Shown here one piece after another: positions 966 through 57,290 of a stretch of DNA of 64,000 nucleotides. The position numbers and the translations under genes are program-made. The DNA lies in assembly GCA_951406725.2 (NCBI GenBank), contig OX597815.1, positions 77,748,001 to 77,812,000 on the forward strand, given 5' to 3'. The stretch comes from Octopus vulgaris (Eukaryota). The first letter of the stretch is position 1. Every line of letters starts with the position of its first letter. The notes under the pieces were generated by a model. The model was given only the letters and a program-made list of their open reading frames with translations, made no database searches and was not told the DNA's origin.

Positions 966-2562
966 CAGTGGTTCTCAGCCTTTTTCAAAATTTTTGCTTC
1001 ACAGTCCCCTGGCTATTTTTTGGAGGCCTCGCAGTCCCCAGCCTATTTTGGCAGGAATAAGATTAATCAAATGCAAAATTTTCACGATTATATTACTATT
1101 AGCTTTGAGTAGTTGAATGCACAAAATGCCATTAAATATAAATGTTAGATGTAAGCATAAAATAACAATAATGACACCAGATGTTGGCAAAATGATATGA
1201 AGAAATTTACATTTTGTTTCTTTTTAGGCTATGAAGTAGGGCAACAGTTAACTATACCAAGCTTTAATTATTCATTAGTAATTTATGCTTTCAAACCCAT
1301 TTTTACAAATACTATGTGTGGTGGCAAGTAAGGTCGGCATTGATGTAGCATTTAATTCTTTGTTTATTTTCTCCAATTCTTTCCTTGATTTGCATATATA
1401 CTTGCCGAAAACCAATAGAAGACAGGATATTTTTTGATAGATGTATTAAAGAAAAATCATTAAACCTGTTCAAAAGAAGGATTAATGTAACTGCTGTATT
1501 TGATTTAGCTTTACCAACTCGTCTATATTTGGCTGGGTTCTGGATGAAGCAACCCTCATATCGTGTGTAACATCCAGTCTGTTTTGTTGTTTGCTTTTTA
1601 TCAATTGAATAACCGAAAACGCCAACTCGCACTCATAGGTGGTTGTGAAGGGAACCAGATATTTCAGTGCCACCTCTGAAATATCAGGATAGAGCATATC
1701 AGAGAATCAGCTTTTGTCTGGAAAAAATCCTCCTTTTTGTCAACAAAGCCAGGGTGTTTTCTTTCCAAGTGTCACTTTAACTTGCTAGGTTTGAGAGAAG
1801 ATGCCAAAAAACACATAACATCTCTCCTCTCCATTTGAAATTATAACAGTAAAGCCAAATTTCAAAAAGGATATGCTGTATTTCATTTTCTTTCTTGGAT
1901 TCATTCTAAAAAACAGAAATTTACATAGTATCAACTGTGCAAGTAATGGTAATTGATAAATTACATCTTCACATTTGATTTGGTAAAATTATTCAACTTG
2001 ATAGCTTTGTTTGGCTTTGAAAATGAATCATGACCGAGTAATCATAACCCTAATGCTTGATAACGTAAAGCAGTGTATGTAAACTTACATTAGATTACAA
2101 AGATGATGAATTTCTCTGTAATGGTAAATCGTCTGAGACCAATTGAAGTTGATGAAATCACATGTGCTTACAAGACCATTTGCAAAAAGGAAAGTCTGAT
2201 TAATCATGTTGCACTGTGAATAGTGTTTTAAAGCTGCATCCATAATCACAGACCACTCACTTGAGACCAAAATTGCCAACATAATGGCTGATACAGTGTG
2301 CTGTATACGCATGTGAGAACCTGTGAGTGTGACCTTACCATGCATGTCTAGACAGGTATTGCCAAGCTACCAGCATACCAAATTCTACAGCAATGCATGT
2401 GAGAATTGCATATGCATACAAATACTCACTATGAACATACGATTATTTTTTGGTGTAATAAAATTTCTAAAATTGTTGGTATTTGCCACTCAATTGCAGA
2501 AAAAATTTCTGATGCCTTCGCAGTCCCTTTGGAGACTGCAGACCTCAGGTTGCGAACCACTG
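966..2562 (-). mobile_element. hAT (Charlie/Buster-type) DNA transposon, internally deleted, non-autonomous
   Basis: TIRs cagtggttctcagcct / aggttgcgaaccactg; perfect 8-bp TSD gtctagaa (958-965, 2563-2570) matching NTCTAGAN; transposase remnants inside. Confidence 0.92.
1482..1900 (-). pseudogene. hAT transposase remnant: BED-finger-region fragment next to the C-terminal dimerisation domain
   Basis: YPDISEVALKYLVPFTTTYECELAFS...NRLDVTHDMRVA (hATC-like, 1482-1697); upstream FLKFGFT...LKPSKLK*HL resembles Buster/ZBED N-terminus. Confidence 0.8.
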
Positions 2563-11779: not shown

Positions 11780-12350
11780 GATTACAACACCTTCCCTTAG
11801 CAAAGAAGGAAGGCAGATCTTTCTCAGTTTAGTGGTTGTGGCTAAAGAGGCTGTGTGGTGGACCGGACCCATCTGAAAGGCTTGAAGGCAGGCACATTCT
11901 TATCTGGTCAAACCTTCATCAATATCATTTGAAGAGGAAGGGGAGGATAGAGAGAGATGTGCTGCCTTCTAGTGTGCTTATCAAAAGATAGTTGACAGTG
12001 GCAAGACTGCTGAGACTGAATAGATCTACTTTGAGTATGCTCTTCCAAGCGAGAGGAAAGAAACTGGAAGAGGACACTTTCCCATGGTTTAGAGATGGCA
12101 GAGTAATGTGGGATTTTTGTTTGAGGTTTACCCCAGATTACCTTAAGTGGGCTGCTCTGCTATTGGGCATTCTATTTATTTATTTATAATTTATTTCTCT
12201 ACTTTCTTATATATATCCTGTTATATTCTTTAATGTGATAGCATCTCTCCTTGATTGATGTTAACCACACGTTTTTGTAATTTTTTTTTGTGCTCTAACT
12301 CATCCTTCAATATTGTCCTCTATGTCTTGGGCCCTTGTGGCCAATAAAAG
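11780..12350 (+). mobile_element. 5'-truncated, decayed Tx1-clade LINE (ORF2 C-terminus plus 3' UTR)
   Basis: PSLSKEGRQIFLSLVVVAKEAVWWT..LKGLKAGTFLSG..HLKRK..TVARLLRL aligns to element A ORF2 end (NEGKFRFLVVVAIAKEVIWKTRMKG...HLKRK...DVARKLRV); ends tattgtcctctatgtcttgggcccttgtggccaataaaa like the A-D tail. Confidence 0.82.
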
Positions 12351-25564: not shown

Positions 25565-25870
25565 GACTGGAATTGTTAGCCCGTCTCTTGCAATTTCGAT
25601 CAATTAAATTTTGTCCTCCCTCTTGTATAGAAGTGTGGTTACAATCCAGCCTACATCTACTTCGGGGGGCGGGGGGGCATTTAAAATTTTTATCTGGGAC
25701 GTCCTACGTCCCAGATATAAAGGTAAAAATAAAATATTTCCACTTTGCAAGTTCGAGTCGAGTACTCCCTTGCATGCTCCATTGACTTGAACCTTGCTTC
25801 TATTGTGGCGAATTTACCGCCTCTGGTGAGATATCTTTCATAGTCGCACCAAGACGCTTTTCGAAGGTGC
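25565..25870 (-). pseudogene. Decayed ORF1 of a third Tx1-like family, downstream half (insertion target)
   Basis: STFEKRLGATMKD / YLTRGGKFATIEARFKSMEHAREYS / SGNILFLPLYLGRRTSQIKILNAP aligns with B ORF1 IENCLKPIMDKITYINRGKKYGTVEVRF...IVLLPLYKGKRTSKITMNNIPPE. Confidence 0.8.
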
Positions 25871-25882
25871 TTTCCTCCAGGT
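25871..25882 (-). other. Target-site motif ACCTGGAGGAAA (3' flank of element A)
   Basis: tttcctccaggt; identical copy at 31125-31136, forming a 12-bp TSD around A. Confidence 0.9.
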
Positions 25883-26128
25883 TGTTTTATTATTACCCAC
25901 AAGGGGCGAACATAGATGGGACAATACAATCTGATGATGGGGTCAGACACACGAATGGGTTTTTACAATAAATCGAATTTAAAAATTTTCATGAATTACA
26001 ATAAATGGACAGAAATCGAATGATGGGACAGACCGGAAGACATTACGGGTGGAGTGGGTGCGGGTTTAGCTCGGACCCCACGAGCCCCGCCTCCCCACTG
26101 ATACTTTTGGTTGCGCTTGGTATTACAT

Positions 26129-29100
26129 TTATGTTGTATCTTTCACTCGCAACTTTCGTGCTACATCCTTCCATCGTTCTTCATACACTCTCCTAGTCAG
26201 GCATATTCTCTCCAGCCCTATCTTCCTTTTCAGGTGAAAGATGAAATACTTCATCAAACCAGGGCTGGAGATGAACTTGCCTGACTGTACACCTTTCATT
26301 CTCGTCTTCCATATCACCTCTTTCGCAATTGCTACTACAACGAGAAAACGAAACTTACCTTCATTCACGAGGAAATCCGGTGGGTCAATTTTTGTAATCG
26401 ACTCAGTCGACAGCTGTACTCTTCGTGTACCTGACAACAGCTGTTCGGCATAAACCCACACCTCAGACACGTCCGGACAATGAACAATAGCGTGCGGGAC
26501 GGTTTCCCTATCCCGCCCGCATCTTGGACATATCGGACTGTCTTGGCCACCGTGCCTTGCGAGTTTATCCCGAACAGGTAGAGCTCCTCTGTAGCATTGC
26601 CATGCCAGAGACTTCTGGAAGTTGTCCAGTGTCCTCGGCTTGAACGTACGTCGGAACAGACTGGCCAGCTGATTATCATCAAGACCTAGGGTTTCCCCCA
26701 AGGTATCTTCACATTCCGCCTCTACCAACCCTCTATAGAAGAATGTGGTGGAACCCCCACCGCAGGCGTTGCCCGAGCGACGGAATAGCAGGAGAGCCTT
26801 GCGACACTCCGTGTACCAAGTACCAAGTTTCGATCTACGATTCAGCCAGGTTTCCCATCCACCGAAACTAGTGAACTTGGGAAACATCAGTTTTGCTAGC
26901 GAAGACCACACCCGTTCACCATCCAGGTAGAGCCACAGATGTCTTAACCTCAGCGCATGTCTGCACATCATCAGCCAAGGCATCCCTAGCCCACCCTTTA
27001 ACGGTTGTTGACAGCAAGTAGAGCGTTTCACAAGTGGTTTCCCGCCCTTCCACAAGAAGTAGAAGAGATGTCTTTCCAACTTGATCAACCACGAATCAGG
27101 GCAAGGAACGACGGAAAGGCGGTAGGTGATAACCGATGCGATAAACACATTGGCCACCTCCGCCCTCCCTTTCAGGGATAGCCACCGCCAAGACCAGGTC
27201 TTGGCTACTGCAGCCACCTTGCTCGTTACCTCGCCCCAATTCTTCTCTATTTGGAGGTCTGGACCGAACCAGACCCCTAGCAGTTTAATCGGACCCTCCG
27301 TCCAACGTCCCACGACGCTGTCAGGAGGCATCGACTTGCCTCTCCAGGTGCCGAGTTGCAAGCCGACTGACTTTTCGCGATTAACTTTTGCTCCTGTCAC
27401 CGTCTCGTAAACCTCTATGGCCTTGCCTACTTTACATAGGTGGTCCATTTCGGTTACGATGATGGTGATGTCATCCGCGTACGCTGACACTGATTTTCCA
27501 TTACCTGGCTGTCTCGGGATGCCGCTCAGTTTTCGCAGTAATGGCTCAAGAGCCATCACGTACAAAAGCGGGGAGAGCGGACACCCTTGACGAACCGAGC
27601 GTTTGATTTTGAACGGCTTCGACAAGAAGCCGTTCACCCGAACTACCGAGTCGATGTTATCATAAATTTGGATAATCCACCTGAGGAAGCCAAGGCTCAG
27701 CCCGAACTGTGCCAGGGCAGATACCAGGTAACGATGGTCGACCCTATCAAAAGCTTTAGATTGGTCTAAATGGACCAGTGCCCCACCCTTGCCAGAATCA
27801 CTATTAAACCCCTCTATAGTGTACCGCATTAGATGGAGATTATCCTGAATGGATCTGCCCGGAACGGCACATGTCTGTGCCTCTCCGATCAGACCATCCG
27901 CGACATGCGCCAATCTTTTCGATAACACTTTGGCCAAAATCTGCAACTCTGTGTTTAGCAGAGTGATGGGCCTGAAATTATCAATGCACTCCCCCTTGCT
28001 CGGGTCCTTTCTGACGAGAGTCACTACTCCCCGGCGCACAGATCTGGGTATAAGCCCGTTCTGCTGCCAGTTCGCATAGACCTCCGCCAGTAGGTGCCCG
28101 AACAAGTCTGGCATACTCTTATATAACTCATATGGTAGACCATCCAAACCCGGCGCCTTGCCCGCGCCGCAGTCCGCCATTGCCTCAACCACCTCCTCAG
28201 GCGTGATTGGCCCTTCACAGCCCTCCGCATCTCGCCCCGATAAGCGCGGCAGACCGTCGAGTAGGTCCGTAAAGGCCCTCCTCCTATCCAGTCCGCCGCA
28301 CTCACCGAAAAGCTGAGCGAAGTGCTCCTGAAAGGCCTCACACATCTCCTCGGGTTCGTTTATCAACTCACCTTGTTGGTTCGTCAAAGATCGAATCGTG
28401 GCATCGTTACCATGCTGAGCTTCCACCACTCGGGCCCATCTCACGGCGTTGATTCCTTCACATCCCATATGGCGGATTCTAGCCCTGACAATGCAGCCCA
28501 TGTGTTTGGCCTCGAGGTGCTGGTTTAACACCAGTCTCTTGGACGCCACCTGAGCCGCAGAGCCAGTTTTCATGGCTTCCTCTAATTCCTTAACTAGAGT
28601 AGTTTCCCTTCTAGCCTCTCTAGCCACTACTCCTATGCTATATCTAATAGACTCAAACTTGATGGCTCGTTTGAGGGCGTACCACCATTTGTTATTAATG
28701 ATGGTACCAGATAGTGCCCTCTGAATTATATTCCTAATCCGGTCTTTGTACTCCTTAATCGCCAAAAGGGACGTATTAAGTTTCCAGTAACCGGATCCTC
28801 TATTTTTAACCTTATCTATGTCAAGCTTACAAGTGACCATTTTATGATCACTGTAGCTGATCGGGTAAAACTGTGGACACTTAGCTATTTTACTGTCTAC
28901 TTTTCTAATTAGTATTCTATCTAAATATGACCTGGAAGATCCGTCGCTGTTTGACCATGTCCACAATGGAGCGTTCGGAAATTCCAGCCTATAAGGATCT
29001 GCTAGCTCAAAGCGGCTTAGCAGTTCCATGAAGCCACTGTTGCCTTTTCTATCTGGACGCGAGCCAACACAATCTACATCCGCTTTGCAAATTCTGTTAA

Positions 29101-29524
29101 AGTCTCCTAGCACCACTAATGAATGCGAAGTACCAAGAAAGTTTTCTAGTTCACGAAAGTAATCACTTTGCCCTGTATGGTTGGGTGCGTAAATTGCAAC
29201 CAGTCTGATAACTTTACCATTACTGAACGTCAAATCCATGACGACCAGCCTACCTTCTGGATCTGCAAAAATTAACTTTTTCTCAGAAACCCGGTTTCTT
29301 TTTAATAGGACCAACACCCCACTCCCGCCTGTAGGACTGCCAGGAGAGAAAAAACTCTCGTAGCCGTCAAACAGCGGGAGTAGACCTCTTGGCCCCTCTA
29401 ACCGGGTTTCTGTAGCAACAATAACATCTAAATTACGCGACCTGATATCATGCAGGAAGCGACCTTGTTTCCAGCCTGCTCCCAGGCCGCACACATTCAA
29501 ACAACCAACATAAATGTAATCCAT
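26129..29524 (-). CDS. ORF2 of A: APE endonuclease, reverse transcriptase, C-terminal zinc ribbon (1131 aa, intact)
   Basis: APE motifs LNVCGL, ATET, GDFN, YLDRI, SDH; YWKLN; KAPGLDGLP; RT motifs FRPITLLN, DQSKAFDRV, RQGCPLSP, YADD, GGLG; CPRC...H...HC. Confidence 0.96.
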   Translation of the reverse strand: MDYIYVGCLNVCGLGAGWKQGRFLHDIRSRNLDVIVATETRLEGPRGLLPLFDGYESFFSPGSPTGGSGVLVLLKRNRVSEKKLIFADPEGRLVVMDLTFSNGKVIRLVAIYAPNHTGQSDYFRELENFLGTSHSLVVLGDFNRICKADVDCVGSRPDRKGNSGFMELLSRFELADPYRLEFPNAPLWTWSNSDGSSRSYLDRILIRKVDSKIAKCPQFYPISYSDHKMVTCKLDIDKVKNRGSGYWKLNTSLLAIKEYKDRIRNIIQRALSGTIINNKWWYALKRAIKFESIRYSIGVVAREARRETTLVKELEEAMKTGSAAQVASKRLVLNQHLEAKHMGCIVRARIRHMGCEGINAVRWARVVEAQHGNDATIRSLTNQQGELINEPEEMCEAFQEHFAQLFGECGGLDRRRAFTDLLDGLPRLSGRDAEGCEGPITPEEVVEAMADCGAGKAPGLDGLPYELYKSMPDLFGHLLAEVYANWQQNGLIPRSVRRGVVTLVRKDPSKGECIDNFRPITLLNTELQILAKVLSKRLAHVADGLIGEAQTCAVPGRSIQDNLHLMRYTIEGFNSDSGKGGALVHLDQSKAFDRVDHRYLVSALAQFGLSLGFLRWIIQIYDNIDSVVRVNGFLSKPFKIKRSVRQGCPLSPLLYVMALEPLLRKLSGIPRQPGNGKSVSAYADDITIIVTEMDHLCKVGKAIEVYETVTGAKVNREKSVGLQLGTWRGKSMPPDSVVGRWTEGPIKLLGVWFGPDLQIEKNWGEVTSKVAAVAKTWSWRWLSLKGRAEVANVFIASVITYRLSVVPCPDSWLIKLERHLFYFLWKGGKPLVKRSTCCQQPLKGGLGMPWLMMCRHALRLRHLWLYLDGERVWSSLAKLMFPKFTSFGGWETWLNRRSKLGTWYTECRKALLLFRRSGNACGGGSTTFFYRGLVEAECEDTLGETLGLDDNQLASLFRRTFKPRTLDNFQKSLAWQCYRGALPVRDKLARHGGQDSPICPRCGRDRETVPHAIVHCPDVSEVWVYAEQLLSGTRRVQLSTESITKIDPPDFLVNEGKFRFLVVVAIAKEVIWKTRMKGVQSGKFISSPGLMKYFIFHLKRKIGLERICLTRRVYEERWKDVARKLRVKDTT

Positions 29525-29532
29525 TACTTACC

Positions 29533-30908
29533 TTATATCAGTGGTTCGGTTTTCTCTTGTTCTTCTAACTCTTTTTCTGGGCCTCGTGGGGGAGTCTGAC
29601 GTAGGCCCTCGAATATATGTGGAGATGTCACATCCAATCTAAGTGGGCCTACGTCATGGAAGAATTCTGACTTTATCCGCCCGTAATCCTTCCGGCCTAT
29701 TCTGTAAATTACAAAGTCGTTTTTTTCACTACTTTCTCCACTTTGGCCATGGCTGCCAACTCGTTTCCGAGTCTGCTATTTGCTGCCTTTACGGCCATAT
29801 ACGAGTTCATTGACTCTTTTTTCTTTTTTAAAATTACTCTGGGAGGGGTGGTTTCCGTTTTTCTTTTTTTTTTTTCCGGTAATTTTTGCCCACCCCTCCT
29901 CATTTATCTTTTCCTCGCTCTTTTTTTCCTCCGCCGCTGGTTCTGCTGTCACCGTCACCTCCACACCTTCAGTCTTCCCTTCTGGGCCGTCCGACGCTGC
30001 TTCTGGTGACACATTATCTCTTCTTTTTCTTTTGGCTTAGGTGCTTCCTGCGGTTTGGGTTGGGGTTGGCATTCCGCCCTTACATGACCCTTCTTGCCGC
30101 AGCCGAAGCACCTCGGCTTCCTGCCCTCCACGAAAACTGTTATTTTCTCGTCTTCACTAATCTTTACCGTTTCTGGAATTTCTTCCAGTGTTTGCACCTC
30201 CGCCTGAATGGCTATCACTATTTTCTGCCCTTTCCAAAACTCCTCTTCCTCCACTGTGGCCTGGAGGATGTTTATTTTTTCCTCCAGACCTACCATCACT
30301 GCTGCCACCAGACATTCAGCATCTGCCTCTGGCGGTATGTTGTTCATTGAAATTTTCGACGTCCTTTTTCTTTTATACAATGGTAGTAAGACAATGTTTT
30401 CCGCTTTGATCGGCTCCATTGATAGTTTCTTCGCTATCTCCTCCGTAGTAAAACGCACCTCCACTGTGCCGTATCTTTTTCCTCTGTTTATATACGTTAT
30501 TTTATCCATAAAAGGTTTTAGACAAAACTCTATTTTTTTTTCTTCGATTTTTTGATCATTTTGTCGTTGTGTCGTAAGTTTTATATATTATTCTTTTTTT
30601 TCTATATCGTCATGTTTTTGTATGTTTGTGGCCACAGTCACTTCTGTGCCTTCTTTTTTACACAGTCTGCAAATTTTCCAAAATTTTCTATATTTATTTT
30701 TTTGATCTTTTTCCCAGCCACTTCAGCGAATTTTTTTGCTGGAGTTGATGCTGGTACTGGTTTTTCCATTTTCTTGGGCGACGCCGCCTCTTTTTTCTTC
30801 GGCGACAACGCCTCTTTTTCTTGGCGACAACGCCTCTTTTTTTCTTGGCGACAACGCCGGGTATTCATCCTCGCTCGTCACGGGCGAATAAGAGATGGGG
30901 GACTCCAT
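29533..30908 (-). pseudogene. ORF1 of A (RRM-like region plus CCHC knuckle), broken by several 1-bp frameshifts, possibly assembly errors
   Basis: MESPISYSP start; RGKRYGTVEVRF; CFGCGKKGHVRAEC; ends KTEPLI*; colinear with B ORF1. Confidence 0.88.
30770..30858 (-). repeat. ~24-bp coding tandem repeat (about 4 units, SP[KR]KKEA[LA])
   Basis: Repeated ttttcttggcgacaacgcctc; two units at the equivalent site in B (~36003-36048). Confidence 0.85.
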
Positions 30909-31398
30909 CTTGAACAAATGGCTTTAACAAGCCTTTGGTAAATCCAAATTAATTGTAGTTTTCCCCCACGGAGGGGGGAACACCAACGCGAAGTCTTCGC
31001 GCGAAGGCTGACTTCGTCAGTTAGACAACAATAGACAAAACAGGTAGACCAACAGTATATAATAACAGAGATAATAGTACGAGAGCAAAAATATATCAAC
31101 TTACTAATAAACGCAAAAAATTGATTTCCTCCAGGTTGTTTTATTACTACCCACAAGGGGCGAACATAGAGGGGACAAAACAATCTGATTTGGGGTCAGA
31201 CATACGGATGGTTTTTACACAAAATCGGATTTAAAAATATCATGAAATTACAAAAATACACACAAAATCGAATGATGGAATAGACCGGAAGACATTACAG
31301 ATGGAGTGGGTGCGGGTTCAGCTCGGACCCCACGAGCCCCGCCTCCCCACTGATACTTTTGGTTGCACTTGGTATTACATTTATGTTGTGACTTTCAT

Positions 31399-34300
31399 TC
31401 ACAACTTTCGTGCTACATCCTTCCATCGTTCTTCATACACTCTCCTAGTCAGGCATATTCTCTCCAGCCCTATCTTCCTTTTCAGGTGAAAGATGAAGTA
31501 ATTCATCAAACCAGGGCCGGAGATGAACTTGCCTGACTGTAAACCTTTCATTCTCGTCTTCCATATCACTTCTTTCGCAATTGCTACTACAACGAGAAAA
31601 CGAAACTTACCTTCATTCACGAGGAAATCCGGTGGGTCAATTTTTGTAATCGACTCAGTCGACAGCTGTACTCTTCGTGTACCTGACAACAGGCTGTTCG
31701 GCATAAACCCACACCTCAGACACGTCCGGACAATGAACAATAGCGTGCGGGACGGTTTCCCTATCCCGCCCGCATCTTGGACATATCGGACTGTCTTGGC
31801 CACCGTGCCTTGCGAGTTTATCCCGAACAGGTAGAGCTCCTCTGTAGCATTGCCATGCCAGAGACTTCTGGAAGTTGTCCAGTGTCCTCGGCTTGAACGT
31901 ACGTCAGAACAGACTGGCCAGCTGATTATCGTCGAGACCCAGGGTTTCCCCCAAGGTATCTTCACATTCCGCCTCTACCAACCCTCTATAGAAGAATGTG
32001 GTGGAACCCCCACCGCAGGCGTTGCCCGAGCGACGGAATAGCAGGAGAGCCTTGCGACACTCCGTGTACCAAGTACCAAGTTTCGATCTACGATTCAGCC
32101 AGGTTTCCCATCCACCGAAACTAGTGAACTTGGAAAACATCAGTTTTGCTAGCGAAGACCACACCCGTTCACCATCCAGGTAGAGCCACAGATGTCTTAA
32201 CCTCAGCGCATGTCTGCGCATCATCAGCCAAGGCATCCCTAGCCCACCCTTTAACGGTTGTTGACAGCAAGTAGAGCGTTTCACAAGTGGTTTCCCGCCC
32301 TTCCACAAGAAGTAGAAGAGATGTCTTTCCAACTTGATCAACCACGAATCAGGGCAAGGAACGACAGAAAGGCGGTAGGTGATAACCGATGCGATAAACA
32401 CATTGGCCACCTCCGCCCTCCCTTTCAGGGATAGCCACCGCCAAGACCAGGTCTTGGCTACTGCAGCCACCTTGCTCGTTACCTCGCCCCAATTCTTCTC
32501 TATTTGGAGGTCTGGACCGAACCAGACCCCTAGCAGTTTAATCGGACCCTCCGTCCAACGTCCCACGACGCTGTCAGGAGGCATCGACTTGCCTCTCCAG
32601 GTGCCGAGTTGCAAGCCGACTGACTTTTCGCGATTAACTTTTGCTCCTGTCACCGTCTCGTAAACCTCTATGGCCTTGCCTACTTTACATAGGTGGTCCA
32701 TTTCGGTTACGATGATGGTGATGTCATCCGCGTACGCTGACACTGATTTTCCGTTACCTGGCTGTCTCGGGATGCCGCTCAGTTTTCGCAGTAATGGCTC
32801 AAGAGCCATCACGTACAAAAGCGGGGAGAGCGGACACCCTTGACGAACCGAGCGTTTGATTTTGAACGGCTTCGACAAGAAGCCGTTCACCCGAACTACC
32901 GAGTCGATGTTATCATAAATTTGGATAATCCACCTGAGGAAGCCAAGGCTCAGCCCGAACTGTGCCAGGGCAGATACCAGGTAACGATGGTCGACCCTAT
33001 CAAAAGCTTTAGATTGGTCTAAATGGACCAGTGCCCCACCCTTGCCAGAATCACTATTAAACCCCTCTATAGTGTACCGCATTAGATGGAGATTATCCTG
33101 AATGGATCTGCCCGGAACGGCACATGTCTGTGCCTCTCCGATCAGACCATCCGCGACACGCGCCAATCTTTTCGATAACACTTTGGCCAAAATCTTCAAC
33201 TCTGTGTTTAGCAGAGTGATGGGCCTGAAATTATCAATGCACTCCCCCTTGCTCGGGTCCTTTCTGACGAGAGTCACTACTCCCCGGCGCACAGACCTGG
33301 GTATAAGCCTGTTCTGCTGCCAGTTCGCGTAGACCTCCGCCAGTAGGTGCCCGAACAAGTCTGGCATACTCTTATATAACTCATAGGGTAGACCATCCAA
33401 ACGCGGCGCCTTGCCCGCGCCGCAGTCCGCCATTGCCTCAACCACCTCCTCAGGCGTGATTGGCCCTTCACAGCCCCCCGCATCTCGCCCCGATAAGCGC
33501 GGCAGCCGTCGAGTAGGTCCGTAAAGGCCCTCCTCCTATCCAGTCCGCCGCACTCACCGAAAAGCTGAGCGAAGTGCTCCTGAAAGGCCTCACACATCTC
33601 CTCGGGTTCGTTTATCAACTCACCTTGTTGGTTCGTCAAGATCGAATCGTGGCATCGTTACCATGCTGAGCTTCCACCACTCGGGCCCATCTCACGGCGT
33701 TGATTCCTTCACATCCCATATGGCGGATTCTAGCCCTGACAATGCAGCCCATGTGTTTGGCCTCGAGGTGCTGGTTTAACACCAGTCTCTTGGACGCCAC
33801 CTGAGCCGCAGAGCCAGTTTTCATGGCTTCCTCTAATTCCTTAACTAGAGTAGTTTCCCTTCTAGCCTCTCTAGCCACTACTCCTATGCTATATCTAATA
33901 GACTCAAACTTGATGGCTCGTTTGAGGGCGTACCACCATTTGTTATTAATGATGGTACCAGATAGTGCCCTCTGAATTATATTCCTAATCCGGTCTTTGT
34001 ACTCCTTAATCGCCAAAAGGGACGTATTAAGTTTCCAGTAACCGGATCCTCTATTTTTAACCTTATCTATGTCAAGCTTACAAGTGACCATTTTATGATC
34101 ACTGTAGCTGATCGGGTAAAACTGTGGACACTTAGCTATTTTACTGTCTACTTTTCTAATTAGTATTCTATCTAAATATGACCTGGAAGATCCGTCGCTG
34201 TTTGACCATGTCCACAATGGAGCGTTCGGAAATTCCAGCCTATAAGGATCTGCTAGCTCAAAGCGGCTTAGCAGTTCCATGAAGCCACTGTTGCCTTTTC

Positions 34301-34775
34301 TATCTGGACGCGAGCCAACACAATCTACATCCGCTTTGCAAATTCTGTTAAAGTCTCCTAGCACCACTAATGAATGCGAAGTACCAAGAAAGTTTTCTAG
34401 TTCACGAAAATAATCACTTTGCCCTGTATTGTTGGGTGCGTAAATTGCAACCAGTCTGATAACTTTACCATTACTGAACGTCAAATCCATGACGACCAGC
34501 CTACCTTCTGGATCTGCAAAAATTAACTTTTTCTCAGAAACCCGGTTTCTTTTTAATAGGACCAACACCCCACTCCCGCCTGTAGGACTGCCAGGAGAGA
34601 AAAAACTCTCGTAGCCGTCAAACAGCGGGAGTAGACCTCTTGGCCCCTCTAACCGGGTTTCTGTAGCAACAATAACATCTAAATTACGCGACCTGATATC
34701 ATGCAGGAAGCGACCTTGCTTCCAGCCTGCTCCCAGGCCGCGCACATTCAAACAACCAACATAAATGTAATCCAT
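31399..34775 (-). pseudogene. ORF2 of B (APE-RT), nearly identical to A ORF2 with a few single-base indels
   Basis: Track pieces 33636-34775, 33277-33639, 31904-33445, 31399-31965 reassemble to the A ORF2; indels near 33640, 33505, 31905, 31692. Confidence 0.92.
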
Positions 34776-34784
34776 TACTTACCT

Positions 34785-36098
34785 TTATATCAGTGGTTCG
34801 GTTTTTTCTTCTTCTTCCTTCTCTTTTTCTGGGCCTCGTGGGGGAGTCTGACGCAGGCCCTCGAATATATATGGAGATGTTATATCCATTCTGAGCGGGC
34901 CTACGTCATGGAAAAATTCGGACTTTATCCGTCCGTAATCCTTCCGGCCTATTCTGTACAATACATAGTCGTTTTTCCTCCCTATTTTTTCTACTTTGGC
35001 CATCGCTGCCAACACATTTCCGAGTCTATTGTTCGTGGCCTTAACGGCCATAAATGAGTTCAATGACTCCCTTTTTTTTTTGGTTTACTTTGGGAGGGGT
35101 GGTTTCAGTTTTTCTTTTTTTCCTAGTGATTTTTGACCACCCCTCCTCCTTTTTCGTTTCCTCGCTCTTTTTTTCCTCCTCCGTTGGTTCCGCTGCCTCT
35201 GTTACCTCCACACCTTCAGTCGTCCCTCCTGGGCCGACCAGCGCTGTTTCTGATGACGCGGCTTCTGCTTTTCCACTTGGCTGAGCTGCTTCCTGCGGTT
35301 TGGGTTGGGGCTGGCATTCTGCCCTTACATGCCCTTTCTTACCGCAGCCGAAGCACCTCGGCTTTCTGCCCTCTACGAAGACTGTGACTCTTTCATCTTC
35401 GCTTATCTTTAGAGTCTCTGGGATCTCTTCCAGGGTTTGTACTTCTGCTTGTATGGCTATTATTATCTTTTGCCCTTTCCAGAATTCTTCTTCTTCTACG
35501 GTGGCCTGGAGGATGTTTATTTTTTCCTCCAGGCCTACCATAACTGCTGCCACCAGACTTCGGCATCCGCTTCTGGCGGAATGTTATTCATTGTGATCTT
35601 GGAAGTTCTCTTGCCTTTATACAGGGGTAGGAGAACAATATCCTCCGCTTTTATGGGTTCCATGGATAGCTTCTTCGCTACCTCCTCTGACGTGAATCTC
35701 ACCTCCACTGTGCCGTATTTCTTCCCTCGATTGATATATGTGATTTTATCCATTATCGGCTTTAAGCAGTTTTCGATTTTTTTCTCCTCTATTTTTTGTA
35801 TTGCTCTGCTTGTTATACTGAATGTCTTATAGATTATTCTCCTATTTGAAATTTCCTCCTGTTTTTGGGCGTTTGAAGCCACGGTTACTTCCGTGCCCTC
35901 TTTTGACACACAGTCCGCATGTTTTCCCAGGTTTTCCACATTAATTTTTTTAATTTTCTTCCCAGCTACTTCCGAAAATTTTCTCGCTGGTGCTGGAATA
36001 TCTTTTTTCTTTGGCGACCCCGCCTCTTTTTTCTTTGGCGACACCGCCGGTGATCCTGCATCACTTGTCACAGGAGAATACAAGATGGGGGATTCCAT
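34785..36098 (-). pseudogene. ORF1 of B (CCHC knuckle), two frameshifts
   Basis: Track pieces 35535-36098, 35041-35553, 34785-35063; CFGCGKKGHVRAEC. Confidence 0.9.
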
Positions 36099-36320
36099 CT
36101 CCGATAACTGGCTTTAACAAGCCCTTGGCACAACCAAGATAATGATAGTTTTTTCCCCCACGGAGGGGGGAAACACCAACACGAAGCCCTCGCACGAAGG
36201 CCGACTTCAATAGTTTTACAACAACACAGAAAGACAGCTAGACACACAGTAGATCACAATGGAGAAAATATACACAATATAATAACTTACTATACACGCA
36301 AAAATTGATTTCAGACAGGT

Positions 36321-38093
36321 GATTTTATTACTACCCACAAGGGGCGAACATAGAGGGGACAATACAATCGGGGAACTTAAAATAAGAAAGCGAATGACAA
36401 GAAAAGGAAAAAATAAAAGTAAAAAATGACATATGAAAGAATATTTACAATGAGATGTAAATGCCCACTCGATCCCCGGAATCGAGAGGTTACATTTTCG
36501 TCACATATATTTCACAAATTTTCTTTTTTCTCTTCTTTCTTCTCTCTCTTCTCACAATTCTATACATATTCCATAATAGCTTTCAATTCTCTAAAGTCTA
36601 TCACTGAGCCCTCAGGCAGCCGCTCTCTCACTCGAACACTCGTGTAAAATATTACACTCTCTCCGGCAGCTCTGAGGAACTCAGCGACTCTTTCTTCGGG
36701 GATTAGAGCAGTCTCCTGCCACTGATCGGTCATCCTGTTGACCCATATATGTCCCTCCGTATTACATGTCAAGTCTTTCATTACAGGGCAGAAATGGAAG
36801 GTTACTAACTTGTAGAAGCAGTAATCTTGTTTCCGTCCGACGTTTTCCTTCATTTTTCTTTTCGGGCTTATTTCTTCCTTGTTCTCCTCTCTTTGTTTCT
36901 CTCTTTCTCTCTTTTTGCCTTCTTTTCTTTCTCCTTCCTTCTCTTGTCTTTTTGGTTCTTTGTCTGTTCTCTCTTTCTCTCGTGTTTTATGTTCCTTTTC
37001 TTTTTCCTTTTGTGTGCCGTCTTTTCTTTTCGTTTGATTCTGATCTCTCTCTTGTTTTTTTCCTGTTGTTTCTTTTTCCTTTTTTTTTTCCTGACTCTGT
37101 TTTGGTTCTATTTCTTTCTTTTCTTTTATTTCTTTTTCCTTCATTGACTTATTATTTCCTTTCTCTTGTTGTTTTGTTTCCTTTTCTATGTTTTCTTTTT
37201 CATTTACCGTATTCTTCTTTTCTTCAAGTTCCTGCTCGCACTCCGCTACGAATTCGTATAACGGGCACTCTTTTTTAATGTGCCCCCTTGTCCCGCACAG
37301 GTAACAGTTTGGTTTTCTTCCCTCTACAATTACACTGAGGGTTTTTTCGTCTTCAATTTCTATTCTGTAGGGGAACCTTTCAATGTCCTCTTTTGTGGCC
37401 ATCAAACACAGTTCTACCCCATATCCTCTCCAGTTTACCGCGTTGGACTCCTTAAAGGATTCCACCTCCACTTCCTCTTCTGCTGCTCCTAGAATAGCTG
37501 TTGCCAGCCATTCTGTTTTCACTTCTGGGGGTATATTCGGGATTTTAACCCGGACCCCTCTTCTTCCCTTGTATGAGGGCCACATTGTAAATTTTTCCGC
37601 TCTTAGTACGGTGGTAGCCAGTGAGGCTGCAATTTCTTCCGTTGCACATCTCACCTCCACCGTACCAAATTTCTTGCCTCTACTCACGTAGGTTGATTTC
37701 CCCATTATGTCTCCCAGACATTTTTCAATTTCGGCTATCTCCACTCTTGCCAGTTTCTTCGTATTTTTGTCTTGGGTTCTATATGTCACTGTCTTGCTTT
37801 CTTTGTCCTCTTTTGCTTTCGCGGGGGGGGGGGGATTAGCTTCACGCTATCACCCTCCCTTTTGAAAAGCTTTTCATATTCTTTGAGTTTATCCTTCTCA
37901 AAGAAAACATCCTTCACGATTATCGACGAATCATTATTTTTTCCCGTGACCCCCGCGTAAGTCGCCATGACTAGAGGGTCAATTCACCTTCTTCGGAAGG
38001 TTTCTACACGTGGAGGCAAACGCCTCGCGCGATATTAATCAATTTACACGGAAACAATTTCAACGTCTAGTCACAGATAACAACACGCATAGA
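36321..38093 (-). mobile_element. Element C: ORF1-only non-autonomous retrotransposon (half-Tx1, HAL1/HeT-A-like architecture), ~1.77 kb
   Basis: Own 5' UTR, single ORF1, ~240-nt 3' UTR, no APE/RT; last ~45 nt match A/B; 12-bp TSD tttcagacaggt (36309-36320, 38094-38105). Confidence 0.9.
36560..37968 (-). CDS. ORF1-like protein of C: RRM-like region, CCHC knuckle, K/E-rich linker, distinct C-terminal domain (409 codons open; N-terminal ~47 codons out of frame at a C-run)
   Basis: YVSRGKKFGTVEVRC, NIPPEV, VIVEGRKPNCYLCGTRGHIKKEC are homologous to A/B ORF1; ATG at 37968. Confidence 0.88.
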
Positions 38094-38105
38094 TTTCAGA
38101 CAGGT

Positions 38106-39873
38106 GATTTTATTACTACCCACAAGGGGCGAACATAGATGGGACAATACAATCGGGGAACTTAAAATAAGAAAGCGAATGACAAGAAAAGGAAAAAATA
38201 AAAGTAAAAAATGACATATGAAAGAATATTTACAATGAGATGTAAATGCCCACTCGATCCCCGGAATCGAGAGGTTACATTTTCGTCACATATATTTCAC
38301 AAATTTTCTTTTTTTTCTTCTTTCTTCTTCTCTCTCTTCTCACAATTCTATACATATTCCATAATAGCTTTCAATTCTCTAAAGTCCATCACTGAGCCCT
38401 CAGGCAGCCGCTCTCTCACTCGAACACTCGTGTAAAATATTACACTCTCCCCGGCAGCTCTGAGGAACTCAGCGACTCTTTCTTCGGGGATTAGAGCAGT
38501 CTCCTGCCACTGATCGGTCATCCTGTTGACCCATATATGTCCCTCCGTATTACATGTCAAGTCTTTCATTTCAGGGCAGAAATGGAAGGTTACTAACTTG
38601 TAGAAGCAGTAATCTTGTTTCCGTCCTACGTTTTCCTTCATTTTTCTTTTCGGGCTTATTTCTTCCTTGTTCTCCTCTCTTTGTTTCTCTCTTTCTCTCT
38701 TTTTGCCTTCTTTTCTTTCTCCTTCCTTCTCTTGTCTTTTTGGTTCTTTGTCTGTTCTCTCTTTCTCTCGTGTTTTATGTTCCTTTTCTTTTTCTTTTTG
38801 TGTGCCGTCTTTTCTTTTCGTTTGATTCTGATCTCTCTCTTGTTTTTTTCCTGTTGTTTCTTTTTCCTTTTTTTTTCCTGACTCTGTTTTGGTTCTATTT
38901 CTTTCTTTTCTTTTATTTCTTTTTCCTTCATTGACTTATTATTTCCTTTCTCTTGTTGTTTTGTTTCCTTATCTATGTTTTCTTTTTCATTTACCGTATT
39001 CTTCTTTTCTTCAAGTTCCTGCTCGCACTCCGCTACGAATTCATATAACGGGCACTCTTTTTTAATGTGCCCCCTTGTCCCACACAAGTAACAGTTTGGT
39101 TTTCTTCCCTCTACAATTACACTGAGGGTTTTTTCATCTTCAATTTCAATTCTGTAGGGGAACCTTTCAATGTCCTCTTTTGTGGCCATCAAACACAGTT
39201 CTACCCCATATCCTCTCCAGTTTACGCGTTGGACTCCTTAAAGGATTCCACCTCCACTTCCTCTTCTGCTGCTCCTAGAATAGCTGTTGCCAGCCATTCT
39301 GTTTTCACTTCTGGGGGTATATTCGGGATTTTAACCCGGACCCCTCTTCTTCCCTTGTATGAGGGCCACATTGTAAATTTTTCGGCTCTTAGTACGGTGG
39401 TAGCCAGTGAGGCTGCAATTTCTTCTGTTGCACATCTCACCTCCACCGTACCAAATTTCTTGCCTCTACTCACGTAGGTTGATTTCCCCATTATGTCTCC
39501 CAGACATTTTTCAATTTCGGCTATCTCCACTCTTGCCAGTTTCTTCGTATTTTTGTCTTGGGTTCTATATGTCACTGTCTTGCTTTCTTTGTCCTCTTTT
39601 GCTTTCGCGGGGGGATTAGCTTCACGCTATCACCCTCCCTTTTGAAGAGCTTTTCATATTCTTTGAGTTTATCCTTCTCAAAGAAAACATCCTTTATGAT
39701 TATCGATGAATCATTATTTTTCCCGGTGACCCCCGCGTAAGTCGCCATGACTAGAGGGTCAATTCACCTTCTTCGGAAGGTTTCCACACGTGGAGGCAAA
39801 CGCCTCGCGCGATATTAATCAATTTACACGGAAACAATTTCAACGTCTAGTCACAGATAACAACACGCATAGA
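38106..39873 (-). mobile_element. Element D: second ORF1-only element, highly similar but not identical to C
   Basis: Colinear with C end to end with scattered substitutions; flanked by tttcagacaggt (38094-38105, 39874-39885). Confidence 0.9.
38348..39748 (-). pseudogene. ORF1-like gene of D with 1-bp frameshifts
   Basis: Track pieces 39222-39575, 38656-39192, 38348-38641 match the C protein. Confidence 0.85.
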
Positions 39874-39885
39874 TTTCAGACAGGT

Positions 39886-39950
39886 GCTCAAATCTTCTTT
39901 TTTCTTTACATTGTATACTTTATAGACAATAGTCTTTTCTTTAATTTGAT
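39886..39950 (-). pseudogene. Upstream half of the decayed ORF1 split by the array
   Basis: IKEKTIVYKVYNVKKK..EH joins LEESTFEKRL at 25882; aligns with B ORF1 NRRIIYKTFSITSRAIQKIEEKKIENCL. Confidence 0.72.
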
Positions 39951-40446
39951 TTTTTATTATCCATCTGGACTATTCCATTTCTGCACACTAATTTTATTTT
40001 TAATTTATTCCCATTCATGTGAAACCACTTATTCAAGTTCAAGTCATTGATGCAATTTTATACCAATTGCTATTTTTACTTTTGTTATGTTACAATTACA
40101 TTATACTTTAGTTTGATTTTAATTATTACTTACTACATATAATTCAATTGTTATTATTATCTCTAATTTTTATTGTTAAAGTGAAAGTATCTGATATAAA
40201 ATAGAGAAATGTTTTTGTTTCACTTTTAACACGTAATACTGAAATAGTGGAAAAGATATGATATTGCTATGGGCTCGCTCTAGGCAAGAAGTTGAACATT
40301 TTTTTTGCCCATGAAACTACATGGACCCTAAGTAAGGCATGTGTAAAATTTGAATGAAATTGGTTGTGTAGTTCTCAAGTTTTAGGGAAACACACAGACA
40401 GACAGACACACACACATTCTCAGTTTTATATATAGAGAGATAGATA

Positions 40447-42053: not shown

Positions 42054-44689
42054 ATGTATGTTTGTGTGTGTATATATATATATATTATATTTACATACAT
42101 ACACACACATACATACACACTATAAAATGCAGTTTCACCTTCAGTAAATTGTAATGTATAATGCTGTTAAACCACTTGACTTTATGTGGTAGAAATGTAA
42201 ATTCCAATTCACACCCTTATCTCCACATTGACTTCCTCTTGCTACAACAATACAACATGAACCATGGTGGTTTGGCTTGATTGCAGTTGACTTAGCAAAC
42301 AATATCTTAGGTTTGAACTGTTTAATAATAACATTTAGAATGTTATGAACATCTCTGGCAAATTGTAATAAACTGCAAATAGTTAATTTATTTACTGGGT
42401 ACAAACAAGAATAGTGTATTAATACTTGAAATTGAATCTATTAATCTTTTTCATACCAAGCTCGTCCATCCAAAACCGCTTGCTATGAAACCAACCTTTG
42501 CTTTCTTAGTTATCTGAATTAAAAACCTTCCATTATACTTTCATGTTAATTTTATGCTATGAAAAACACCTGCTTTAATAATGATAAAGGTATTATAGTA
42601 AATACTTCATTATTTAGAATATTAATTGAAGCTGTTGCAACAAATTTCAATCATCATCATCATCATCATCATCATTTTAATATCCAGTTTTTCATGCTTA
42701 CATGGGTCAGATGGAATTTTGTTAAGGCATATTTTCTATGGCCAGTTGCTCTTCCTGTTGCCAACCCATACCTGTTTCCAGGTTAAGTAATATATTCCCA
42801 CGACCAGGTGTTTTTTGCATGGAAGGCTGGATACAAACAAACTTGTTTGTATCTTGATAGTTCTCATTTACAACCATTACATGATATCACAACAAGGGTA
42901 CACAGACACATACACACATGCATGCACACATGCACTCACATATATATGCTCTCACATGCACTCACATAAACATACTCATATACACACACATGTATACACA
43001 AAGGGGCTTTTTTCCAGATTCTGTCTATCAAGTTCATTTGGTCAGCCCAAGGCTAAAGTAGAAAACATTTGCCCAAGGTGCCATATGGTAGGACTGAACC
43101 AGAGACCACATGGTTGGGAAACATGCTCCTTAACCTCACAACCATGCCTGTACATGTTATAGGGTAGCAAAAAAGTTAAATAACTATTTCACAGTTTTTC
43201 ATCTAAAAATGTTTGCTTCTACTCACTTGGCTCTAAACCATCTTGTTTTCAGTTAAGCTAAGCAGATAAACTAATATGCCTAACCTAAAGACATAGCTTG
43301 AACTGTATTAACTCTCTTAATCAATAAGTGTCTACACATCTCTGTTACTAAATGGAAATCATGACAAACTGCCTCAGTTCCTTTAGCTGCTAACCTATTT
43401 CTTTCTAGTCAGTTTTATATCAAGATATTATCACTTCAGATTCACATTTGCCTAAAGCCCCAAATGCTTCTAACAGTCAAGTGGTTTGCTTCAGTTAGTT
43501 GATTTCTTTTGTCTTTCAAGGCTACTATGTCATACTAAAATTCCTGCTCTTGAGAACTTCAGATTCTTATGAATGAAGTACTGCTCTTGTTTTCACTTCC
43601 TTTGAATAACAGACATGGCCTTTTGAATGAAATTCAATAAATTAATTGCTTCCATCTGACTAATAATAATAATAATAGTAATGATGATGATGATTCAAAA
43701 TTAATCAGAAATTGGAGAACAATCCCACTTGAGCATTGAAGAATGGTTATAAAATAGAAAAGAAAGTATCTTTAAAATGAAGTGAAGCTTGTGTACAACT
43801 TTTGACCAAATTTAATTTACTTGCAAGATGGTGCTACTAAACAAATTAATTTCTATAATCTTAAATGTCAACTTCTGCAAGAGATCTTGGAAATGTTCTA
43901 GGTTATTGATTTTCATGTGAGAGGATTTTGGTTTTGCTAAACCCGCAAACTACATGGTAATTTCCAGTTCATTTGACCCTTCACCACCAATTTATTCTCT
44001 TCCTGTTATTCTACTTGCTCTGTGACTGCTTTAAGTGTAACATCAGGCACCAAATACCAATAACACTGATGGGTAACAGGATACAAATTACTGTCTTCCT
44101 TAGATATGAGTCTGACAACTTATATCCATCCACTCAGATAGATTTTTAGATGGTTATCATCAATAGTTGCTGAAATATTCTAATTTTCTCTAAGAAGCCA
44201 CAACAAAATGATTGAACTCAACCTGCTAGAAAGAGCAGCTAAATTTTCCTCAAATCAAACTGTACTGCAAAAGACAAAAAGAATATATTGGACAGTGTAG
44301 GCTCTAGTATATACAAATAAATGTGATGGTCGTGGCTGGACTGCTTTGATCATATGTCTACTTCATTTGTGCTACATAGAACTGAACAACACTAACAACA
44401 GGTTTTTAACTTTTAGCACTCATAAATTGTTTATTTTAGTAAAAATACTGAACTGCTTCAAGTAGGATGTTGAAAGGTATGATGTGGGGAGCAGGAACAT
44501 GTTTACTGTTGTGGAGATTTGTGGCTACCTTGCATTTTAGATGAGGTGGATGGAGTATGTCAAAAAAAGAGGCAAATGTGGTGGTGACAAGGTGCCAGAA
44601 TGTACACTTGTTATCATGCATCCATGTATATGTATGTATATATATATATATTTATATATATATATATATCAAACAAAATCAAACAAAAT

Positions 44690-56644: not shown

Positions 56645-57290
56645 GATTGGAAGATCAAAGAAGCTCAACAAATTGGTACCACACAATTTGAATGAAAATT
56701 AGAAAATGTGCAGATATGAAATTTGTTTGTCACTTCTCCGTAACCAGACTGATCCATTTCTCAACCATATTGTAACTTGCAACGAAAAGTGGATTCTGTA
56801 CAATAATAAAAAACGTTCTTTGCAGTGGTTGGACCAAAGTGAAACACCGAAAACCTTCCCTAAACCCAAGCTCTTCAAAAAGAAGGTTATGGTGACTGTT
56901 AGGTGGAGTACTGCTGGGCTCATCCACTATAATTTCTTAAAACCTGGAAAAACCATTCCTGCAGAAACTTATTGCCATGAAATTTTCAAAATGAACGAAA
57001 AACTGCTACTCTTCTGTCCCAGACTAGTCAACAGAAGAGGGCCAATCATTGTTCATGACAATGCTTGACCACATGTTTCACCAATGAAGCTCCAGAAGTT
57101 GAGGGAACTTAGCTATGAAGTTCTTCCCTACCTAGCTTATTCCCCAGACTTTTCTCCTATCGACTACCATGTTTTAAAGAACCTTGATGGTTTCCTGCAA
57201 GAGAAGGAGTTTAAAAATCAAACCGATGTTGAAAGCGCATTCAAAGAGTTCATCAGCTCCAGAACTCCAGATTTTTATGTTACTGGTATA
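56645..57290 (+). pseudogene. Mariner (DD34D, Mos1/Hsmar-like) transposase remnant
   Basis: (W)VPHNLNE; FLNHIVTCNEKWILYNN; KKVMVTVRW; IVHDNA*PH; AYSPDFSPIDYH; in-frame stops. Confidence 0.92.

Follow-up and report, generated by a model that had tools for sequence, protein, structure and literature searches.

We describe a stretch of 64,000 nucleotides from Octopus vulgaris (GenBank assembly GCA_951406725.2, contig OX597815.1, positions 77,748,001 to 77,812,000; hereafter the window, with positions counted from its first letter) in which four retrotransposons stand head to tail on the minus strand, parted by five 12-bp spacers, inside what protein comparison identifies as the decayed first open reading frame (ORF1) of another long interspersed nuclear element (LINE). 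Two of the four, A and B, are full-length LINEs, and the other two, C and D, carry an ORF1 only. The spacer has the form ACCTG-NNN-GAAA and comes in two versions, with GAG or TCT as the variable triplet, and the version switches across B. The array was likely built by four successive target-primed insertions at a single site. We believe, with slightly more confidence than doubt, that each insertion reused a regenerated target-site duplication (TSD) and that the switch arose when a TCT-bearing 5' leader on the RNA of B replaced the upstream GAG copy.

The array and its spacers

Read in the sense of the elements, D, C and B follow the host 5' flank, each preceded by a TCT spacer; a GAG spacer then leads into A, and a second one separates A from the host 3' flank. 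An earlier sequence-only reading had reported the two motif variants and their switch across B, and we recovered all five copies, on the minus strand. The gapped motif has seven matches in the window, compared with a mean of 0.80 in shuffled sequence, and none of 100 shuffles reaches seven. Five of the seven fall exactly on element boundaries; the remaining two, on the plus strand at 44221 and 50360, are in the flank and adjoin no element.

The same reading credited A, C and D with perfect 12-bp duplications. This holds for A, whose two ends match over 12 bases and which alone fixes the spacer length, because identity runs past 12 bp at other junctions. The ends of C match over 14 bases, and for D no limit can be set, as its sequence opens in the same way as that of C. 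Because these two elements are 98% identical and have ends that run into the spacer, their perfect duplications are no independent evidence. The ends of B match over only 5 bases: its two spacers are of different versions, and all they have in common is the first five bases and GAAA. At all four element 5' junctions the identity extends as GAAATC (a TC following GAAA), and at the three TCT junctions it reaches one base further left. Reuse of a duplication cannot by itself change three bases, so the switch needs a template.

Look-alikes of the GAG spacer also occur inside the ORF1s of the elements themselves, at 11 of 12 bases in B (35523-35534, minus strand) and 10 of 12 in A (30278-30289, minus strand), and both are uninterrupted. 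These near-matches suggest that the first base or the upstream context may matter.

The interrupted ORF1 and the pre-insertion site

By their protein matches, the two flanks adjoin each other as halves of a single decayed LINE ORF1, which belongs to the superfamily of the elements themselves. A profile search of 1.84 billion representatives gave 816 matches, and the best 150 were used. In tblastn with 156 ORF1 homologues, 109 match the flank downstream of the array and 7 the one upstream, and the two sets of matches fall on neighbouring parts of the protein. The 58 informative homologues (those of 155 aligned rows that span the site) have 17 residues across the site in 51 cases and 13 in none, and an empty site with one spacer copy would measure 53 nt, or 17 codons and 2 nt. 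A 7-bp direct repeat around the whole array (39882-39888 and 25866-25872, minus strand) was considered as an alternative TSD and rejected, as it gives 39 nt or 13 residues. The upstream flank scores +4.6 bits against the profile in the downstream frame and -4.2 in the other. Its last codons fit only in the downstream frame, so we place a 2-nt slip in an upstream A-run, and on the same scores we reject an empty site that lacked the first two spacer bases.

Translated in the host frame, the spacer gives Leu-Glu-Glu, and the variable triplet coincides exactly with a single codon. We ranked the homologues on host residues outside the spacer, which left 68 of the 155 rows with enough overlap. The two nearest (54% and 50% identical to the host) read Phe-Glu-Glu-Ser/Asn-Thr-Ile-Glu. 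Since both carry Glu where the triplet varies, the original version was probably GAG, as the sequence-only reading had expected. Glu is found there in 5 of the top 8 homologues and in 13 of all 68. We strongly infer from these comparisons that the empty site held one spacer copy in its GAG form. A second spacer-like stretch follows in the host right after the target.

The host remnant makes up 363 of the 49,985 flank bases, which renders insertion into it by chance unlikely (under 1%), a figure that concerns one event. An RNA gene as target is rejected: there is no Rfam or tRNA match in the window, and the target is not 28S ribosomal DNA (rDNA) but an ORF1 remnant. Among 140 of 298 candidate flank frames and 3 longer ORFs scanned for host-gene exons, the only match above cut-off is a transposase fragment. 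A search for closer host-family proteins gave only 3, all of them already in the query.

How the spacer may have changed version

Our preferred explanation runs as follows. The ORF2 protein of A would nick just before the spacer and leave a 12-bp duplication, and the upstream copy, still joined to the host 5' flank, would be reused by B. The cDNA of B would end in the complement of a TCT-type spacer and anneal to the top-strand overhang, pairing over either the first 5 bases or the full 12 with a bubble of 3 nt, after which the TCT strand would be retained. C and D, mobilised in trans through a 3' tail shared with A and B, would then insert at what was now a TCT-type junction. The order of insertion would be A, B, then C and D. 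A itself would have been resolved to GAG or had no leader, and C and D are uninformative about a leader because both would have entered a TCT site. The leader might originate in a donor array by read-through, or it might be a fixed 5' end derived from the target. It is possible that TCT is the usual target of these elements, in which case the local GAG site was a near-match at 9 of 12 bases that B converted. That TCT arrived on an RNA 5' leader was first proposed in the sequence-only reading, and we consider it the best explanation of the switch, with direct precedents in R1 and R2.

A number of observations weigh against this explanation. The evidence base is one locus, with one site reused four times and one informative event. 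Annealing over 5 bp and over 12 bp is not separated by computed duplex energies (-5.9 and -6.3 kcal/mol, the latter with the bubble; -14.5 when matched); the bubble duplex is barely the stabler. No ribozyme like that of hepatitis delta virus (HDV) that could release a 5' end was found, either by Rfam E-value scans at 2 of the 4 element 5' junctions or by a simple descriptor, one not validated on known ribozymes, at all 4. Ser is common at the variable codon too (2 of the top 8; 10 of 68), and the nearest homologues, at 50-54%, are not close to the host. The reading of the empty site requires that 2-nt frameshift upstream, in a remnant that has other frameshifts. No gene was found that spans the array, so the flanks are not proven to be one locus. 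The target is not a conserved ORF1 motif either, as 0 of 63 homologues could encode all four fixed codons. Finally, in 4 of 4 cases the version of a spacer goes with the family of the element that lies upstream (GAG after A and B, TCT after C and D), which transfer on a 3' trailer would explain without any special event.

On that last alternative the host site was TCT, and RNAs of the A/B type ended in a GAG spacer from their donor and were primed at a nick between the triplet and GAAA, with a 4-bp duplication. Besides the tracking of families, it gains from the AATAAA signal 3 nt before the spacer, so that cleavage after RNA polymerase II transcription would likely fall in or after the spacer, and from R1, some insertions of which took in up to 14 nt of downstream target according to PMC2718515. 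The tails of A and B can also pair with the start of the spacer, but they fold no better than shuffles (z 0.36 and -0.21). It runs into difficulty at the host codon. The nearest homologues have Glu-Glu here, and one of them matches the downstream host reading at 6 of 8 residues; in this host copy all three bases of the codon would have to have changed to give Ser, and to have ended up by chance the same as the trailer of C and D. We regard it as quite improbable.

A second alternative works at the level of DNA: a TCT-type array and a GAG-type array, each in its own copy of the host family, were fused inside B through ectopic recombination, through gene conversion or by the assembler. A and B do look mosaic, with ORF2s that are 99.1% identical (29 clumped substitutions and 3 gaps over 3394 columns) yet 5' untranslated regions (UTRs) and ORF1s only about 80% alike. 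However, 5' replacement alone, which is described as established for L1 (PMC5753468), explains that mosaic. Other arrays probably exist, the homopolymer frameshifts suggest an error-prone assembly, and a gene spanning the array was not found. What makes us think such a junction unlikely is that it calls for another copy of the host, different at three adjacent bases and with an insertion at the very same base, and that the flanks join in register as one ORF1.

The sequence-only reading also allowed that D-C-B had come in as one unit. In that case D-C-B (8.7 kb), or C-B, would be one read-through RNA from a TCT-type array, inserted upstream of A. One event would account for all three TCT junctions, and gene models at three other O. 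vulgaris loci, which put a C-type ORF1 downstream of another repeated ORF, point to possible mixed donor arrays. The RNA must read through two AATAAA signals, though, and be copied completely over 8.7 kb, and it still requires a TCT leader at its 5' end, that is, the same annealing step with more assumptions. Transfer as a block is therefore possible but less likely than entry of B alone, and we give it little credence.

The least probable account, one we find hard to credit, is pure gapped recognition or coincidence: the endonuclease reads nine fixed bases, and TCT is an unrelated fixed end of the element or a local change of several bases, the RNA bringing no target copy with it. Insertion did go on after the triplet changed, so the triplet is tolerated. 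A three-base change is nevertheless impossible by recognition alone, an unrelated end would match GAAA in register only about 1 time in 170 (arithmetic from base composition), and the two flank matches to the pattern are unoccupied. The gapped recognition site first suggested for the motif gains no support from the spacers. Only two versions exist, and descent or annealing probably connects them, so the GAAA they share is no independent sign of what the endonuclease reads.

In a wider version of our explanation, a lineage of octopus LINEs, together with ORF1-only elements parasitic on it, would aim at a site within the ORF1 of sister LINE families, carry a copy of it on their RNA and rewrite near-matches to the preferred form, each first insertion seeding a landing pad for mixed-family arrays across the genome. 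We doubt that so much is true.

The four elements

A and B each carry two ORFs. The ORF2 of A matches the Pfam domains Exo_endo_phos, RVT_1 and zf-RVT, with the catalytic motifs present. Among solved retroelement proteins its closest relative is L1 ORF2p (E 5e-64, residues 3-867), and R2, which uses a restriction-like endonuclease, matches over the reverse transcriptase (RT) only (E 1e-25). A separate ORF1 with a CCHC knuckle is a feature of Tx1. Here zf-CCHC is above the Pfam cut-off in C and D, and its Cys/His spacing is seen by alignment in the ORF1s of A and B, which have no Pfam match at 0.01. One distant match (26% identity) bears a TX1 name. By these protein comparisons A and B are non-LTR (long terminal repeat) retrotransposons of the L1/Tx1 group; the Tx1 label itself is a lead only. 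ORF1 proteins of the A/B type are present in O. vulgaris and O. sinensis. The ORF2 of A is intact, so its endonuclease is directly testable.

Some further features of A and B deserve mention. A strong splice-donor-like GTAAGT stands at the ORF1/ORF2 junction (A, 29515-29540, minus strand; B, near 34775), where a stop-Gly-Lys-stop reading overlaps the start of ORF2. Two hairpins are kept in the 5' UTRs (30950-31030 and 36150-36210, both minus strand) despite regional identity of roughly 80%. An old 3' fragment of a related LINE lies at 11781-12350 (plus strand), with about 45% amino-acid identity to the C-terminus of ORF2; its tail is similar and has the same 5-nt loop on a different stem, and an A-rich run without a spacer follows.

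No ORF2 match was found in C or D. The only sequence they share with A and B is a 47-nt 3' tail, 96-98% identical among the four elements and closed by the AATAAA signal. Their ORF1 is only 36-39% identical to that of A and B, and on this measure it looks like a homologue that belongs to a different lineage, so that simple deletion of the apparent helper is an improbable origin. In the region searched, the ORF1 of C is up to 97-100% identical to proteins of O. vulgaris. Neither the shared tail nor the proteins had a match in viral, metagenome or prokaryotic collections, and the stem-loops of the tail fold no better than shuffles in 5 of 5 cases.

C-type copies elsewhere in the genome

C-type proteins number 19 in O. 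vulgaris and are spread over 7 sequence records, distinguished by length. Several of the proteins carry consecutive accessions: CAI9715245-251, CAI9739099-101, CAI9729052-053 and CAJ1099379-380. In the first run six of the seven numbers are C-type, with five distinct sequences 1-50 substitutions apart, the highest values being inflated by one frameshifted gene model. The second run is one identical protein and could be isoforms. Accession order read as gene order suggests that arrays recur at other loci. C and D differ at three amino acids, two of them private and one shared with other copies (C state in 15 of 19, D state in 3 of 19). As C and D match different copies, separate sources or insertions are modestly favoured over local duplication, at least on these protein differences.

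The repeated ORF that three O. vulgaris gene models splice upstream of a C-type ORF1 is 89 amino acids long. It has no match in the window, and homology to ORF1 was not detected. This ORF (P0204 group) ends in Gly-Lys, like the reading at the ORF1/ORF2 junction of A and B, so the arrays may include a further autonomous family whose ORF1 ends in it.

Table 1. Features of the array and its host, by position in the window (aa, amino acids; APE, apurinic/apyrimidinic endonuclease type)
Feature	Position	Strand	Evidence
Host downstream half of decayed ORF1, two further frameshifts	25583..25870	-	profile matches E 3e-14, 2e-8
Spacer 1, GAG version (A / host 3' flank), in frame with host ORF1	25871..25882	-
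Element A, 5242 bp, full-length LINE, ORF1 broken	25883..31124	-
Shared 47-nt 3' tail, copy in A	25885..25931	-
ORF2 of A, intact, 1131 aa: APE endonuclease, RT with YADD, C-terminal zinc finger	26129-29524	-
Spacer 2, GAG version (B / A)	31125..31136	-	motif match
Element B, 5172 bp, full-length L1/Tx1-group LINE, ORF1 broken	31137..36308	-
Shared 47-nt 3' tail, copy in B	31139..31185	-
ORF2 of B; ORF1 and ORF2 of B disrupted by frameshifts and a stop in this assembly	31384-34775	-
Spacer 3, TCT version (C / B), 5' junction of B, records the switch	36309..36320	-	motif match
Element C, 1773 bp, ORF1-only	36321..38093	-
Shared 47-nt 3' tail, copy in C	36323..36369	-
Open frame of C, 428 codons, with zf-CCHC	36560-37846	-
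Spacer 4, TCT version (D / C)	38094..38105	-	motif match
Element D, 1768 bp, ORF1-only, CCHC knuckle, frameshifted in this assembly	38106..39873	-
Shared 47-nt 3' tail, copy in D, AATAAA ends 3 nt before spacer	38108..38154	-
Spacer 5, TCT version (host 5' flank / D)	39874..39885	-	motif match
Host upstream half: decayed L1/Tx1-type ORF1 remnant	39886..39960 (approximate outer limit)	-	tblastn best E 8e-7

Outside the array, the transposase fragment lies at 56703-57065 (plus strand; Pfam Transposase_1, E 2e-23) and is one we take to be mariner-type. At 1485-1706 (minus strand) there is a weak match to a hAT dimerisation domain, with an E-value of 0.005 that is below the Pfam cut-off.

Comparison with known systems

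A literature search, which took in few subscription journals and not Repbase, found nothing on these octopus arrays or on a Tx1 element that targets the ORF1 of another LINE; the families may already be catalogued in Repbase. The ingredients are known: reuse of TSDs (R1), target copies borne on RNA (R1 and R2), Tx1 in other transposons and ORF1-only partners (HAL1). What is unusual is that array building and the leader mechanism, known from R1 and R2, likely operate in an element of the L1/Tx1 group, that ORF1-only partners are mixed into the array, and that the site lies in another LINE's ORF1. If our explanation is true, the locus is a natural marked-leader experiment for an APE-type LINE, in which three marked bases reveal which of the strands prevails when the second strand is primed, a step of LINE integration that is poorly resolved. 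The ORF1 of another LINE would also join the kinds of sequence such elements insert into.

L1-Tx1 elements are described as expanded in coleoids (PMC8967140). A close comparison is with members of the Tx1 clade as reported in PMC4494074. Like Xenopus Tx1L in Tx1D and crocodilian Tx1-Mar with its short interspersed nuclear element (SINE) SINEU-3, the octopus array has an LINE of the APE-RT type in transposon-derived sequence, with a non-autonomous partner; tandem copies of SINEU-3 sandwich the TSD in a transposon target, as the octopus copies do in theirs. The targets given there for the clade are DNA transposons, LTR elements, microsatellites, satellites and small-RNA genes, whereas the site here is in a LINE ORF1 remnant. 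The octopus partner is ORF1-only and not a SINE, and that account, as available to us, describes no spacer switch.

C and D resemble HAL1 (half-L1), which is non-autonomous and encodes ORF1 only (PMC5753468); they too have an ORF1 only, a 3' end shared with an autonomous partner and dispersed copies. Unlike HAL1 as presented there, they have an ORF1 far diverged from that of the apparent helper, no poly(A) tail and arrays separated by spacers. Zepp of Coccomyxa is likewise a LINE that piles up in multi-copy clusters at few sites, but its copies are reported as nested, of one family and in about one cluster per chromosome (PMC3446292), while the octopus copies are full-length, head to tail and in a different, decayed family.

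Close parallels for the switch come from rDNA elements. In earwig R2 a 22-bp copy of the downstream target with three substitutions stands at all 5' junctions and is explained by heteroduplex priming (PMC3774820). As in this and other R2 elements with upstream self-cleavage, the octopus array would propagate a downstream-target copy with three substitutions through a cDNA/target heteroduplex. R2 as described there sits in rDNA and has an HDV-like ribozyme, in contrast to the APE endonuclease and the lack of a detected ribozyme here. Reuse of TSDs has been argued for dimers of transposable elements generally (bioRxiv 10.1101/158386), and R1 arrays form by insertion into the 5' TSD (PMC2718515). 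According to the same source, melanogaster-type R1 RNA brings along target sequence, and this anneals at the 5' junction, also where the site is an off-target near-match. The octopus array agrees with Drosophila R1 in its head-to-tail copies separated by a spacer of TSD length and, on our explanation, in reinsertion at the 5' copy and in an RNA-borne target that anneals. It departs from the R1 of that account, which has an upstream-target leader and lives in 28S rDNA, in that its leader would be a diverged copy of the downstream, duplicated target and that two families share one array.

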